DNA of 64,000 nucleotides from Candidatus Levyibacteriota bacterium (GCA_963716145.1 OY970292.1:204104-268103), one strand, 5' to 3'; positions 8,141 to 54,128 are shown, numbered from the stretch's first letter. Numbers and translations: made by a program. The notes: generated from the letters alone by a model not told the origin.

Positions 8141-8338
8141 TTAAGCACGTGTTACATTTTTTGCGCTTGGGCCTTTAGGACCGTCAACAATTTCAAACGT
8201 GACTGTGTCGCCAACTTGAATTTCATCAAAGGTTACACCGCTCAAATCGTTGGAATGGAAAAAAAGATCCTTTGCTTCGCCTTCACGGGCAATGAATCCA
8301 AATCCTTTGTCCGTTTTTGTTTTTACTGTTCCTTTCAT
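8141..8338 (-). CDS. csp: cold-shock protein (CspA family)
   Basis: The 65-aa protein MKGTVKTKTDKGFGFIAREGEAKDLFFHSNDL... carries the RNP1-like KGFGFI motif. It starts at the ATG at 8338, preceded by the GGAG RBS and an extended -10 TGGTATAAT. The 126-aa ORF in the track is an artefactual extension that would overlap tRNA-Lys. Confidence 0.85.
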   Translation of the reverse strand: MKGTVKTKTDKGFGFIAREGEAKDLFFHSNDLSGVTFDEIQVGDTVTFEIVDGPKGPSAKNVTRA

Positions 8339-8368
8339 AGTTTGCTTCTCCTTTCTATAGATTAGTAT

Positions 8369-8377
8369 ATTATACCA
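8369..8377 (-). promoter_or_regulatory. extended -10 element (TGGTATAAT) of the csp promoter
   Basis: Read on the minus strand about 25 nt upstream of the csp ATG, immediately after the downstream repeat copy. Confidence 0.4.
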
Positions 8378-8389
8378 GAAATACCTATT

Positions 8390-8490
8390 TGTGATCCGGG
8401 CGGGATTCCCTTCGACTTTGCTCAGGATAAACTTCTCATCCCACCAGGCTTCAGCAATCTCAATACGCTTGCACTGAGCTTGCCGAAGTG
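8390..8490 (-). repeat. tRNA-Lys-associated ~100-bp element: 80-bp insert plus a 19-nt direct repeat of the tRNA 3' end
   Basis: The 19-mer GAATCCCGCCCGGATCACA (minus sense) occurs at the tRNA 3' end (8489-8507) and again at 8390-8408. The intervening sequence starts TTCGGCAAGCTCA and ends GGGATGAGAAGTTTATCCTGAGCAAAGTCGAAGGG. A homologous element follows tRNA-Gly at 52762-52864. Confidence 0.6.
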
Positions 8491-8562
8491 TGATCCGGGC
8501 GGGATTCGAACCCGCGACCAAGAGCTTAAAAGGCTCCTGCTCTACCGCTGAGCTACCGGACC
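8491..8562 (-). tRNA. tRNA-Lys (anticodon UUU)
   Basis: Manual fold: acceptor GGTCCGG/CCGGATC, D-arm GCTC-AGCGGTA-GAGC, anticodon stem-loop GGAGC-CUUUUAA-GCUCU, T-arm GCGGG-TTCGAAT-CCCGC, discriminator A. Confidence 0.8.
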
Positions 8563-9457: not shown

Positions 9458-10399
9458 TTATTTCTGCTCTAAAAACGTATTAATAAGCCGGGCCACGTCA
9501 TTTGCTTTTTCAAAAAGCACTGCGTGCCCGGCTTGCTGCAGGACAATAAGCTTTGAGTTGGGGATTAGTTTGGCTGTTTTGATAGAATTTTCGGCAGGCA
9601 GCACTTTATCTTCTTTTCCGGCAATTAAAAGAGTTGGGGATTTTATAGAGGGTAAATAAAGCGTGCGTGAGTTTTCAATTTTTGTGTTTGAAAGCGCCTG
9701 TTCCTGCGCTATCTTAGCTTGAGTACTTTCTCCCGGACCGGAAAGTAATTCTCCTCTGTTTTGAGCAGATTTCAAACGCTGCAGATAATTATTTCTAGCT
9801 TGCAAATTTACGAAAAAATATGAGACATATGTATCCTCCCAACTTCCCCCAAGGTTTTCCTGAATAGCTATGGATACCTCTTTCGATCCTTCAATCTGCT
9901 GGTCTCCGCCCAGGGCAGTGCTGATCAAAACTAACCGATTTACACGGGTTGGGTAATGCTCAGCAATCTCTTCGGCAACAAAACTGCCAAGTGACCATCC
10001 CATGATATTGGCTTTTTTTATTTTTAGAGTATCCATCAGATGTATGACGTCCGTAGCCATCTCCTGGGTTGAATTGTTTACCTGACCTGTAGATGCCCCG
10101 ACTCCGCGGTAATCGTATGCAACCACTTCATTGTGAACAGAAAGCCTGCGAAGAAGTAATGGATCCCAATGCTGCATTGTCATCCCAAATCCGGGGAGCA
10201 AGATAAGAGGGTAGCCTTTACCACGGGTGAAGTAGGCAATCTTTGCTCCTTGTAAGTTTGCGGTTTTAACCTGGGCTTTAAAAGAAAAAAAGTGATTTAT
10301 CGCAAAGCATAGGCAAAAAACCGCAAAAAGTACCGTAGTTAACAAAACGTAAACATCATAATCCTTATTCATGAAGTTGTTACGGATTGTGTTTTTCAT
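9458..10399 (-). CDS. alpha/beta hydrolase fold protein
   Basis: 313 aa with an N-terminal TM helix and the nucleophile elbow GWSLGS (GxSxG); the C-terminal AGHAV fits a His of the catalytic triad. Confidence 0.65.
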   Translation of the reverse strand: MKNTIRNNFMNKDYDVYVLLTTVLFAVFCLCFAINHFFSFKAQVKTANLQGAKIAYFTRGKGYPLILLPGFGMTMQHWDPLLLRRLSVHNEVVAYDYRGVGASTGQVNNSTQEMATDVIHLMDTLKIKKANIMGWSLGSFVAEEIAEHYPTRVNRLVLISTALGGDQQIEGSKEVSIAIQENLGGSWEDTYVSYFFVNLQARNNYLQRLKSAQNRGELLSGPGESTQAKIAQEQALSNTKIENSRTLYLPSIKSPTLLIAGKEDKVLPAENSIKTAKLIPNSKLIVLQQAGHAVLFEKANDVARLINTFLEQK

Positions 10400-10427
10400 T
10401 CGTGGTCTGCAAATGCTTGCCCAATTG

Positions 10428-10501
10428 TACCGCGTAGGGGAGTCGAACCCCTGATTCCTTGGATGAAAACCAAGTGTCCTAGGCCACTAGACGAACGCGG
10501 C
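10428..10501 (-). tRNA. tRNA-Glu (anticodon UUC)
   Basis: Manual fold: acceptor GCCGCGU, D-arm GUCUAGUGGCCUAGGAC, anticodon loop UUUUCAU, T-arm AGGGG-UUCGACU-CCCCU. Confidence 0.75.
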
Positions 10502-41216: not shown

Positions 41217-41294
41217 GGTGGCGTTAGCTCAATTGGTTAGAGCATCAGATTGTGGATCTGAAGGTTGCCGGTTCAATTCCGGTACGCCACCCCA
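41217..41294 (+). tRNA. tRNA-His (anticodon GUG), with G-1 and encoded CCA
   Basis: Extra 5' G pairing with discriminator C (His-specific); anticodon stem-loop UCAGA-UUGUGGA-UCUGA; T-arm CCGG-UUCAAUU-CCGG; 3' CCA encoded. Confidence 0.8.
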
Positions 41295-45114: not shown

Positions 45115-45305
45115 TAAACATAACGTATCAATATATAGAATGATTTGTCAATATAGTAAAGCAATTTGCCGATTGACAAGAGAGTTTTAGTTTATTATCC
45201 TTAATATATTCTTTCGGGGTTTTGTGTAAGTCAAAATCGGTGGTATAGCCCACGAGTCTTAACGACATGATCAGGTTTAATTCCTGAGCCGACCGTATAG
45301 TCGGG

Positions 45306-46262
45306 ATGAAAGAGAGAATTATGAAAAAAATATTGGCTTTCGGGCCGCTTTTTATTATTATTGCCGCACTCCTTTGGAGTTTTGACGGCATCCTCAGAAC
45401 CAGCTTATTCTCATCAAATCCCAGAGACAGCATCTACGCTATACCTCCTGCGGTTATTGTGTTTTACGAACATCTGCTGGGCGCAATAATTCTGCTTTTT
45501 CTTTCTTTTAAGTGGTTTTCCGATTTGAAAAAAATGACTAGAAAGGAATGGATAGCTATTGCTATTGTTTCTCTATTCTCAGGAGCATTGGGCACAATAT
45601 TGTATACTATGGCTCTTTCCAAAATAGAATACACGCAGTATTCGGTAGTTGTGCTACTTCAGCAGCAGCTTCAGCCTATTTGGGCGATTGGAGCGGCCGC
45701 AATACTTCTTAAAGAGAAGATCACTAAAAGATTTCTAATGTGGGCAGTGCTTGCTTTAGTCGCAGCTTACCTCATATCATTTAAAGATTTACACGTGAAT
45801 CTAGCAACAGGCTCAGGAACGGCAACTGCAGCCTTGTTGGCAATTTCAGCCGGTTTTATGTGGGGAACATCAACTGCCATCAGTAAGTATGTATTAAATA
45901 AGGTCTCTTTTCTGACCGGAACAGCTCTCCGTTTTTATCTCGCACCAATTTTCGCTTTCTTATTTGTTGCCTCCCAAAACCAAACAAGCGCTTTGTTTAT
46001 TTTAAATCAAGTACAATGGATGACCCTTCTTGTAATTACGCTCTCTACCGGGTTAGTAGGATTGGGTTTTTATTATTATGGTCTTAAGAAAACTCCAGCC
46101 CGGATAACGACACTTTGCGAGCTAGTTTGGCCTGCAAGTGCGGTATTTATTGATTATTTTTATTTTCACAAATCACTTAGCCTGACGCAGATGCTTGGAG
46201 TTGTTTTGCTTTTGTTTGCTATTTATAACGTAACTAAGAAGCAGGAATTTGCAGTTAAGTAA
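45306..46262 (+). CDS. DMT-superfamily transporter (EamA-like, two repeats)
   Basis: 318 aa, ~10 TM, two EamA-like halves. Confidence 0.65.
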   Translation: MKERIMKKILAFGPLFIIIAALLWSFDGILRTSLFSSNPRDSIYAIPPAVIVFYEHLLGAIILLFLSFKWFSDLKKMTRKEWIAIAIVSLFSGALGTILYTMALSKIEYTQYSVVVLLQQQLQPIWAIGAAAILLKEKITKRFLMWAVLALVAAYLISFKDLHVNLATGSGTATAALLAISAGFMWGTSTAISKYVLNKVSFLTGTALRFYLAPIFAFLFVASQNQTSALFILNQVQWMTLLVITLSTGLVGLGFYYYGLKKTPARITTLCELVWPASAVFIDYFYFHKSLSLTQMLGVVLLLFAIYNVTKKQEFAVK

Positions 46263-52573: not shown

Positions 52574-52690
52574 AAAGTGAGTTTAAATCTATCAAATGAT
52601 TCTACCTCATTACTGCAACCTAATGCAAGCCTATGCAGTTGATTCTCTTGAGGTAAGTTTTGTTTTTTGTTATACTTAGCGAACGTAAAC

Positions 52691-52762
52691 GCGGGTGTAG
52701 TTCAATGGTAGAACACAACTTTTCCAAAGTTGATACGAGGGTCCGATTCCCTTCACCCGCTC
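52691..52762 (+). tRNA. tRNA-Gly (anticodon UCC)
   Basis: Manual fold: acceptor GCGGGUG/CACCCGC, D-arm GUUC-AAUGGUA-GAAC, anticodon stem-loop CAACU-UUUCCAA-AGUUG, T-arm, discriminator U. Confidence 0.8.
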
Positions 52763-52864
52763 TGGATTCGGCAAGCTCACCATTCGCGGACGTGGTTAAA
52801 CTCGAGGGAAGGGATGAGGAGTTTATCCTGAGCGAAGTCGAAGGAATTCCCTTCACCCGCTCTG
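52762..52864 (+). repeat. tRNA-Gly-associated ~100-bp element: 80-bp insert plus a 19-nt direct repeat of the tRNA 3' end
   Basis: ATTCCCTTCACCCGCTCTG occurs at 52746-52764 (tRNA 3' end plus 3 nt) and again at 52846-52864. The insert starts ATTCGGCAAGCTCA and ends GGGATGAGGAGTTTATCCTGAGCGAAGTCGAAGGAAT, homologous to the tRNA-Lys element. Confidence 0.6.
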
Positions 52865-52868
52865 AATT

Positions 52869-52898
52869 ATTGACCTCTGCCCCTATTTCTGCTATAAT
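52869..52898 (+). promoter_or_regulatory. sigma70-like promoter (TTGACC-18-TGCTATAAT) for the zinc-ribbon gene
   Basis: Immediately downstream of the second repeat copy; the ATG at 52927 follows about 29 nt after the -10. Confidence 0.45.
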
Positions 52899-52926
52899 CT
52901 CTCTAGCTTTAAGGCATTCTCCTAAT

Positions 52927-53208
52927 ATGACCAATAAATACACAAATCCATGTATCCGCTGTGGAAAAGAAAGGATTCAATCAAAAAAGTGGAAAGAAAA
53001 AACGGTTACTTTCTCAGGCACAACCATTGTGGTAACCCGCACAGAGAATATCTGTCCTGACAAAGAGTGTCAAAAGGTTGTTGACAAAGAATTGAGAGCT
53101 CAAAAAGCAAAAAGAGACAAAATTAAAAGCGATAGGGAAGAGCGTGTTGCTGAGAATCTTCAAAAAAAGGCAGATATCAAAAAAGCTCACCTCCAAAAAA
53201 CCGCATAA
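52927..53208 (+). CDS. small zinc-ribbon protein with basic coiled-coil tail
   Basis: 93 aa with CIRCGK…29 aa…CPDKEC (CxxC-Xn-CxxxC). The ORF in the track starts at 52660 but would run through tRNA-Gly, so the ATG at 52927 with its promoter is preferred. Confidence 0.5.
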   Translation: MTNKYTNPCIRCGKERIQSKKWKEKTVTFSGTTIVVTRTENICPDKECQKVVDKELRAQKAKRDKIKSDREERVAENLQKKADIKKAHLQKTA

Positions 53209-54053: not shown

Positions 54054-54126
54054 CGGGGAGTGGCTCAGTTGGTAGAGCGGGCGGTTTGGGACCGTCAGGT
54101 CGGAGGTTCGAGTCCTCTCTCCCCGA
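54054..54126 (+). tRNA. tRNA-Pro (anticodon UGG)
   Basis: Acceptor CGGGGAG/CUCCCCG, D-arm GCUC-AGUUGGUA-GAGC, anticodon stem-loop GGCGG-UUUGGGA-CCGUC, T-arm GGAGG-UUCGAGU-CCUCU. Confidence 0.8.
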
Positions 54127-54128
54127 CA

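Follow-up and report, generated by a model that had tools for sequence, protein, structure and literature searches.

The window, by which we mean the whole stretch of 64,000 nucleotides analyzed here, comes from Candidatus Levyibacteriota bacterium (GCA_963716145.1, OY970292.1:204104-268103). At 52691-52898 it carries a glycine tRNA gene, an insert bounded by two copies of the 3′ end of that gene, and the promoter-like site of a small gene that follows. The features are listed below, with positions counted from the first letter of the window.

52691-52762, plus strand: tRNA-Gly(UCC), the intact target gene, without an encoded CCA (ARAGORN; Rfam RF00005, 69 bits)
52746-52764, plus strand: copy 1 of the tRNA-Gly 3′ end, within the working tRNA (exact 19-nt repeat)
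52765-52807, plus strand: left part of the insert, with the 5′ arm TTCGGCAAGCTCA at 52767-52779 and then a degenerate HP1 3′ arm
52808-52815, plus strand: inverted partial copy of the target, the "guide-like" strand GAAGGGAT (read from the sequence)
52816-52825, plus strand: conserved 10-nt single-stranded segment GAGGAGTTTA (family consensus GAGAAGTTTA)
52826-52845, plus strand: hairpin HP2, an SRM-like motif with the stem TCC/GGA and a 13/14-nt loop, TGAGCGAAGTCGAA (from the pair table)
52846-52864, plus strand: copy 2 of the tRNA-Gly 3′ end, directly adjoining the box (exact 19-nt repeat)
52870-52898, plus strand: promoter-like site TTGACC-17-TATAAT of the downstream zinc-ribbon gene; host sequence

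A preliminary description of this DNA had reported that the 3′ end of tRNA-Gly is repeated 100 nt downstream. Indeed, the 19-mer ATTCCCTTCACCCGCTCTG occupies exactly two sites in the window, 52746-52764 and 52846-52864, with a spacing of 100 nt. No further site was found in the window when 2 mismatches were tolerated, and none of 100 shuffles gave a match. The repeat runs from A58 of the T-loop to 3 nt beyond the discriminator; the 3′ limit of the tRNA itself falls at 52761 or 52762 (ARAGORN and Rfam). The insert between the two repeats is about 80 to 81 nt long, and the net gain relative to the empty site of a relative (locus L252, described below) is 100 nt. Positions 52808-52814 of the insert are complementary to 52848-52854 (T60 to C66) of copy 2. 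In the HP2 stem, 52826-52828 pair with 52843-52845, and base 52845 corresponds to tRNA position 57.

Downstream of copy 2 lies the small zinc-ribbon gene that had also been described (52927-53208). It encodes 93 aa with a CxxC...CxxxC arrangement and has no Pfam match. The promoter in front of it had been given an 18-nt spacer. Both hexamers are present, TTGACC at 52870-52875 and TATAAT at 52893-52898, with 11 of 12 matches and an extended TG, but the spacer is 17 nt. Since the site is conserved in relatives that lack the element, where it has the form ATTGAC-N17-TGCTAKAAT, it is native to the zinc-ribbon gene and lies outside the element. No terminator was found between tRNA-Gly and the element at the window locus, and the element is therefore probably cotranscribed with the tRNA.

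The window holds a sister element at a second tRNA gene.

8490-8562, minus strand: tRNA-Lys(UUU)
8390-8507, minus strand: sister element at tRNA-Lys(UUU) (covariance-model match, 73 bits)

This locus repeats its own 19-mer, GAATCCCGCCCGGATCACA, at 8507-8489 (copy 1) and 8408-8390 (copy 2) on the minus strand. Between the copies are the 5′ arm (8487-8475) and the box (8440-8409), and the guide-like strand reads CCTGGTGGGAT. The two inserts had been said to share one box right after the tRNA and another, of 35 nt, right before the second repeat, with a divergent middle. The first of these, TTCGGCAAGCTCA, is common to both inserts, directly after the tRNA at 52767-52779 (plus) and 8475-8487 (minus), and our alignment agrees that the middle parts diverge. 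The second box holds in a shorter form: directly before the second repeat, the Gly and Lys loci share a 32-nt core, GATGAGRAGTTTATCCTGAGCRAAGTCGAAGG, with 2 differences between them. Over the full 37-mer, the Lys copy mismatches at more than 3 positions. HP1 folds well at the Lys locus (z, −4.8), unlike at the Gly locus (z, −0.3). Scanning the whole 64-kb window with a covariance model of the box gave these two matches only. No recombinase or transposase domains were seen among the ORFs neighboring either element. Spurious long ORFs run through the tRNAs and elements at 52620-52943 (minus), 52660-53208 (plus), and 8141-8521 (minus); those across 52620-53208 have 182 aa and 107 aa. Peptides from such ORFs, for example, DEEFILSEVEG and DEKFILSKVEG, are likely to be found in databases as hypothetical proteins.

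We also considered the other tRNA genes of the window. A decayed third copy after tRNA-Glu (10427-10501) was rejected on a poor alignment and the lack of a covariance-model match. The tRNA-Glu(UUC) trailer (10310-10437, minus) starts with AATTGGGCAAGC, which resembles the 5′ arm of the element; it shares TTGGGCAAGC, and a partial repeat, ACGGTAC, lies about 95 nt downstream. The tRNA-Pro of the window (54054-54127) has no element. Among the nine tRNAs of the window, only tRNA-His (41218-41294) has an encoded CCA end. An FMN riboswitch lies at 45206-45321 on the plus strand (Rfam, 98 bits).

We then compared the locus with those of relatives, which were fetched through homologues of the 93-aa zinc-ribbon protein and the contigs that encode them. 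In L252, where the protein is 89% identical, tRNA-Gly has the same orientation and the upstream region and promoter are homologous, but there is no element, and the tRNA lies directly 5′ of CACCAACCATCCTCTGGGAATTGAC. The 100-nt addition at tRNA-Gly is an insertion, and it is polymorphic between relatives. In the remaining relatives, tRNA-Gly is inverted together with its own promoter and the element is absent. A covariance-model search of L247 revealed two tandem diverged elements after tRNA-Pro(TGG). Since tRNA-Gly is empty in L252, and tRNA-Pro is filled in L247 and empty in the window, elements have been gained or lost at different tRNAs among close relatives. This presence/absence polymorphism in L252 and L247 shows real mobility.

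Other rearrangements were apparent at these loci. The inversion of tRNA-Gly(UCC) and its promoter, between the methyltransferase and zinc-ribbon genes, is found in most relatives (window 52640-52762 compared with L244, L247 to L251, and L253, at about 1800-1900 in each). Only the window and L252 have the plus orientation; the tRNA gene has been inverted in place within this genus-level group. L245 and L246 carry a different insert of about 115 nt at the 5′ end of tRNA-Gly (1793-1920), flanked by an 11- to 13-nt duplication of the tRNA 5′ end (ACTACACCCGCAA, plus strand) and containing hairpins such as CCGCCATAGGCGG. Judging from this 5′-end insert, insertions appear to favor both ends of these tRNA genes. 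In L248 (2491-4282), a large serine recombinase gene and a GmrSD/HNH gene are inserted directly behind the tRNA-Leu/tRNA-Pro pair downstream of the zinc-ribbon gene.

To see how widespread the box is, we scanned 185,579 species genomes with a loose pattern and metagenomes with a family-specific pattern. Genomes and metagenomes together gave at least 149 instances in at least 128 loci, from CPR, Flavobacteria, and others; carriers include Levybacteria (L061) and cultured Flavobacteria (Maribacter, L063; Lacinutrix, L042). Among the matches listed, at least 102 of the at least 149 boxes have a same-strand tRNA end no more than 260 nt upstream, representing at least 17 isotypes, and for at least 101 the 14 nt after the box have an upstream copy; at least 22 boxes lie at contig ends. 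The tRNA-linked boxes among the matches listed always adjoin a target copy that begins at T-loop position 58. The duplication ends at the tRNA 3′ end and takes in the CCA where this is encoded (L045 and L117). It is 18 to 21 nt long in 59 of 101 cases among the matches listed, with an overall range of 13 to at least 59 nt. Flavobacterial copies often have a terminator between tRNA and box, and there the duplication is sometimes 59 nt, as in L063, where it runs through the terminator; one fixed staggered cut is insufficient for every case. Insert lengths across the family are 32 to 120 nt, many members have no left repeat, and tandem arrays are common (L229, L141, L156, L158, and L187).

Most loci were found with patterns that fix CTGAGC and GTCGAA, and part of the apparent invariance of the box is thus by construction. 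AAGTTTA was unconstrained in the first scan pattern and is conserved in 10 of 10 tRNA-linked matches listed. The loose scan also picked up a GC-rich repeat that is widespread (CCCTGAGCCTGTCGAAGGG with its complement), beside a distinct AT-rich set that, among the matches listed, always follows a tRNA. The GC-rich repeat (CCCTGAGCYTGTCGAAGGG, with the complement CCCTTCGACARGCTCAGGG) occurs in L004 to L123, for example, in L026, L036, L041, L062, and L090, and its hosts are Proteobacteria, Chloroflexi, Acidobacteria, and Actinobacteria. It often forms long palindromes or tandem arrays with a period of 34 to 72 nt and is not tRNA linked. This repeat is probably a sister class within the same motif superfamily.

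A few boxes follow protein genes (L233; ftsZ in L241; a recombinase gene in L146), and in these the 3′ end of the gene, including the stop codon, is duplicated. The last 19 nt with the stop are repeated in L233, with TGA in one copy and TAA in the other. The two ftsZ ends of L241 read EIPAFLRQGR* and EIPAFLRHGR*, and the recombinase of L146 ends in EEKVKLEQL* in both copies. With the exception of one Q/H in L241, the differences between copies are synonymous. Since both copies look like coding sequence and differ synonymously, duplication in place is excluded, and one copy came with the element from another genome. At all three loci, the downstream copy can pair with the nucleotides that precede the box. 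The preliminary description had allowed that the shared boxes might prove to be a common promoter-upstream motif that occurs at non-tRNA sites without duplications; we found the opposite, as the target is duplicated at these non-tRNA loci too. Its broader claim, that the arrangement reflects active targeting or a functional RNA rather than chance, is supported by the tRNA-linked census and by the presence/absence polymorphism; the active form may be RNA or single-stranded DNA.

We next examined structure in an alignment anchored on the box. The formal test used 54 sequences, hand-trimmed by length from 91, in which several columns of the box are fixed by the scan patterns. Three pairings are supported by covariation: HP2, the inverted copy with the downstream copy, and the 5′ arm with the hairpin loop. 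Paired cells reach 91.7% in the 54 sequences, compared with 68.8 ± 1.2 in shuffles (0 of 500 reach the observed value) and at most 51.5% in slid registers. The conserved box consists of GAGAAGTTTA, a 3-bp stem, and a conserved 13-nt loop, TGAGCGNAGTCGAA. In HP2, N1N2C pairs with G(G/T)N57 around a loop of 13/14 nt. The middle pair is C-G in 103 cases, G·T in 11, and A-T in 8; the pair types found are C-G, A-U, G·U, U·G, and G-C, and in L247 the stem is flipped to TGG/CCA. HP2 has 58 G·T cells versus 4 A·C cells, which argues that it folds on the tRNA-sense strand. The HP2 loop can pair with the 5′ arm, TTCGRCAAGCTCA, and the two covary from locus to locus, with A-U in L008, G·U in the window, and G-C in L247.

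The inverted copy varies with the target. The 5 to 7 nt before GAGAAG pair with positions 59 to 65 of the downstream copy, with combinations such as GAT/ATC, GAC/GTC, GGC/GCC, GGT/ACC, and GAG/CTC. In the full set of 126 sequences, the seven pairs are 79% canonical, versus at most 50% in slid registers. The pairing is target specific, with a duplex energy of −11.1 compared with −7.2 ± 0.29 kcal/mol for shuffled partners; only 8 loci have differing copies that are informative on which copy the guide matches. The shortest inserts consist entirely of an inverted copy of the tRNA end, as in L172, where CACAGTTGAGAGC corresponds to the reverse complement CACGGGTTGAGAGGC; the target is thus present in direct, inverted, and direct form. 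We rejected the idea that the guide simply copies the 5′ strand of the T-stem: the helix takes in positions 59 and 60, often reaches 66 to 68, and occurs at non-tRNA targets. An insert derived from a second, degenerate tRNA was likewise dropped, with GCGGACGTGG having only scattered similarity; an inverted copy is preferred because it fits better and holds for protein-gene targets too.

The only ORF that is recurrently linked to the box is a GIY-YIG gene. Bare GIY-YIG ORFs (PF01541 only, 80 to 91 aa) lie inside the inserts of L045 (tRNA-Arg) and L211 (tRNA-Lys), and a profile search of the fetched loci gave ten GIY-YIG ORFs, nearly all immediately 3′ of a tRNA. L124 is two-ended, with a 5′ palindrome, a box-like hairpin, the GIY gene, a box variant, and a tRNA-Gln 3′ copy. 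L155 has a GIY gene and a 22-nt tRNA-Arg duplication without a box, and L237 has a 5′ tRNA-Lys fragment, a GIY gene, the full tRNA, and then an element. In this L237 arrangement (250-760, minus), the fragment covers the first 26 or so positions of tRNA-Lys, and a 19-nt hairpin is inserted in its D-loop. Four loci were chosen by the GIY-YIG protein alone (L254, L264, L269, and L272). In all four, a CCTGAG..TCGAAGG hairpin lies beside the ORF, no more than 20 nt from the start codon or directly after the stop, and three of the four follow tRNA-Gln(CTG). L269 ends in a box and a tRNA-Gln 3′ end unlike that of the resident tRNA, a foreign copy. L254 (485-1273) has tandem GIY-YIG genes, and between them are tRNA-Gln(CTG) and a partial copy of its 3′ two-thirds. 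Most of the at least 149 boxes have no GIY gene in the surrounding few kilobases, and jackhmmer found no GIY-YIG ORF within the 64-kb window.

The GIY-YIG family is large, with about 75 to 87% identity across CPR, Marinimicrobia, and Armatimonadetes. No NCBIfam models match the associated proteins, and their best solved relatives are UPF0213 proteins. By eye, their catalytic Tyr/Tyr/Glu lie no more than 1 residue from Y6/Y17/E64 of SsnA. SsnA belongs to the Ssn nucleases (cd10448), single-domain GIY-YIG proteins of about 94 aa described in 2025 by Chenal et al. in Nat Commun (PMC11893778). These enzymes bind oriented hairpin repeats (NTS/dRS3 in Neisseria, SRM generally), only as single-stranded DNA (ssDNA) of one strand, and cut a few nucleotides upstream of the hairpin; the mapped NTS cleavage is about 3 nt upstream of the motif (PMC11893778). 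SsnA cuts a hairpin assembled from two half-site oligonucleotides in vitro, and 71% of ssn genes are SRM flanked (PMC11893778). The authors likened the motif-gene-motif layout to insertion sequences and left open how SRMs spread and what the enzymes do outside Neisseria (PMC11893778).

On balance, we think it probable that the 100-nt addition belongs, as a non-autonomous member that lacks a gene, to a widespread family of small mobile elements with hairpins, its box being the hairpin motif found beside single-domain GIY-YIG nuclease genes of about 90 aa. Its right end adjoins a target copy that starts at position 58 and stops with the conserved gene, and the intact gene stands upstream. Just 5′ of the box the element carries an inverted copy of the first 5 to 10 nt or so of the target segment, and its two ends are mutually complementary. 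How the element moves we infer rather than demonstrate. The sense strand would fold as ssDNA, and the hairpin together with the helix of inverted copy and target would form a recognition site for an Ssn-like nuclease encoded elsewhere in the genome. This nuclease would cut near 52815/52816, where the guide meets GAGRAG, a few nucleotides before the motif. The variable inverted copy gives way there to the invariant GAGAAG, and we chose this sharp edge of conservation because the mapped NTS cleavage suggests it by analogy. The element would then spread by repair, either break induced or by copy choice, from a template that already carries it; the two homology arms would be the tRNA body upstream and the duplicated 3′ end downstream. 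Repair with two arms would explain both the fixed T-loop start and a duplication that ends where conservation between genomes ends, and the synonymous differences between copies and the foreign copy in L269 fit such repair-mediated spread. Complementary ends within direct repeats would favor copy-choice gain or loss, an idea that draws on the precise excision of transposons. The inverted copy may select the target, as a guide would, or may be templated in the course of insertion. An RNA-level role is possible for copies that are cotranscribed with a tRNA, such as the tRNA-Gly element.

A bolder proposal, which we offer tentatively and with considerable doubt, is that the inverted copy could be a natural DNA guide: it would pair with the gene end, complete a split hairpin, and recruit an Ssn-type GIY-YIG cut of ssDNA. 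If so, this would be a programmable, nucleic-acid-guided homing element that leaves a direct-inverted-direct triplication of its target and hops between tRNA isotypes and phyla by changing 5 to 10 guide nucleotides.

A rival explanation, for which the location of the pairs on the tRNA-sense strand and their many G·U speak, is a functional structured RNA from the tRNA trailer. The second 3′ end and the inverted copy would imitate the T-stem/acceptor minihelix, with the 32-nt module in place of the T-loop. A stable small RNA (sRNA) of about 100 nt would be excised from it by RNase Z/P and the CCA-adding enzyme, or the fold would control how the tRNA 3′ end matures. The helix does use the exact 3′ strand of the T-stem, with the 3′ strand of the acceptor remaining as a tail, and with no terminator before the window element, cotranscription is probable. 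We nevertheless regard this explanation as unlikely. G·T wobbles suit ssDNA hairpins just as well, many Flavobacterial copies have a rho-independent terminator ahead of the box, and the same module occurs after stop codons of protein genes and in the 5′ untranslated region (5′ UTR) or 3′ flank of GIY-YIG genes. Gain and loss between close relatives are unfit for a housekeeping RNA, and Neisseria meningitidis (Nm) SsnA does not bind RNA (PMC11893778). The element matched neither an Rfam family nor a known ribozyme, even at an E value of <10; in Rfam 15, which includes self-cleaving ribozymes and C/D-box RNAs, nothing but tRNA passes the gathering threshold, the best other model being sR60 (20.9 bits versus 50). 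Hammerhead, twister, pistol, and hatchet cores did not fit by hand. A K-turn or box C/D reading of GAUGA...CUGA, with only sub-threshold snoRNA matches, was dropped because there is no canonical flanking stem and CUGAGC serves other supported pairings.

The remaining explanations treat the repeat as the trace of a different event. In a classical MITE, moved by an unidentified DDE or HUH transposase, the 19-nt repeat would be a long target-site duplication from a staggered cut. Imperfect terminal inverted repeats, CTTCGGCAAGCTCA ... TGAGCGAAGTCGAAG, do lie just inside the 18- to 21-nt direct repeats, and the tandem arrays and multiple tRNA targets are in keeping with a MITE. A duplication whose length varies from 13 to at least 59 nt, starting at a fixed point on the left and stopping where the conserved gene stops, is not, and the left repeat is absent in many members. 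Duplication in place cannot give the synonymous copy differences or the foreign copy of L269. No transposase domain lies near either window locus, and the recurrent linked ORF is GIY-YIG only; we find a MITE quite improbable. A repeat that spans from the T-loop to the 3′ end of the tRNA, reportedly a textbook signature of tRNA integration, could also be the attL/attR remnant of a tRNA-integrating island or prophage with a tyrosine integrase whose interior was lost. However, the same 32-nt box occurs across phyla at at least 17 tRNA isotypes and several protein genes, inserts are 32 to 120 nt with no integrase nearby, and independent deletions would not converge on one structure. The family-specific pattern gave 0 matches among 2.9 million viral contigs (IMG/VR), and a remnant of this kind is very improbable. 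A phage origin was rejected as well, the loose pattern having returned 3 unrelated GC-rich IMG/VR matches; BLAST against phage and plasmid collections gave only short, partial, unannotated matches. As for chance similarity or local slippage duplication, only the small size speaks for it, and with zero matches expected by chance and more than 100 homologous instances, it is refuted.

The favored reading, a mobile hairpin element, has practical consequences. The tRNA-linked copies offer natural before/after insertion sites, a fixed T-loop junction, and a target-complementary segment, which make the spreading mechanism of hairpin repeats directly testable. A built-in look-alike of a half-site guide would be of interest for programmable ssDNA cleavage. 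The elements also generate pseudo-copies of tRNA 3′ ends and spurious ORFs, a risk for annotation and for island-boundary calls in CPR and Flavobacteria.

A literature search by sequence strings returned nothing relevant. Like tRNA-targeting integrative elements, the element has a direct repeat from the T-loop to the 3′ end and keeps the tRNA intact; unlike them, it has no integrase or cargo, is 80 nt long, and belongs to a family that uses many isotypes and non-tRNA genes too. Free-standing GIY-YIG homing endonuclease cassettes resemble the family in having a gene beside or inside conserved genes, including tRNAs, and in the duplicated host 3′ end with synonymous differences (here in L241 and L146). 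The Allomyces atp6 element is reportedly a GIY-YIG homing cassette that carries a replacement gene end. GIY-YIG homing enzymes have DNA-binding domains and cut duplex DNA, and such cassettes are not known to have a conserved hairpin module, an inverted target copy, or gene-less miniatures. T4 SegB is described as a GIY-YIG homing endonuclease in a tRNA cluster (PMC13096335). With IS200/IS605 and REP/RAYT elements, the family shares a single-strand hairpin adjoined by element sequence that pairs with the target, but here there is no HUH/Y1 transposase and the pairing is 5 to 10 bp versus 4 nt. Those elements have end hairpins and, next to the hairpin, a short internal sequence that pairs with the cleavage or target site, and they are not known to make a target duplication. 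Both are raised in the Discussion of the Ssn paper (PMC11893778).

The closest known system is that of the Ssn nucleases with their SRM/NTS repeats. There are differences: here the stem has only 3 bp and the conserved information is in a 13-nt loop, and the elements sit at the 3′ ends of tRNA and protein genes with a duplicated target end and an inverted copy, whereas the Ssn paper mentions neither tRNA nor duplication anywhere (PMC11893778). The carriers here are CPR and Flavobacteria, and the window has 2 copies in 64 kb, compared with the hundreds reported for Neisseria, Wolbachia, and Sphingomonas. The published SRM pattern, HGTCWYN(0-2)YYVSBRHN(0-5)WNVSBRGN(0-2)RNCYNB, matches neither element and nothing else in the window; a canonical NTS test string does match. 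At the same time, the outer frames are similar (GTCAT-TCC...GGA-ATC in NTS, GTTTA-TCC...GGR-AWYC here), and the element shares a defining trait of SRMs, an inverted repeat of 20 to 50 nt with a predicted hairpin fold behind an orienting conserved 5′ flank, which is GAGAAGTTTA here. In both systems the pairing is strand specific, and an oriented hairpin with a conserved 5′ flank occurs on both sides of GIY-YIG-only genes of about 90 aa and in many solo copies; the motif-gene-motif layout is found here in L124, L254, L269, and L272. By analogy, we class the element as one that probably works like an SRM, which is a likeness in operation rather than demonstrated membership.
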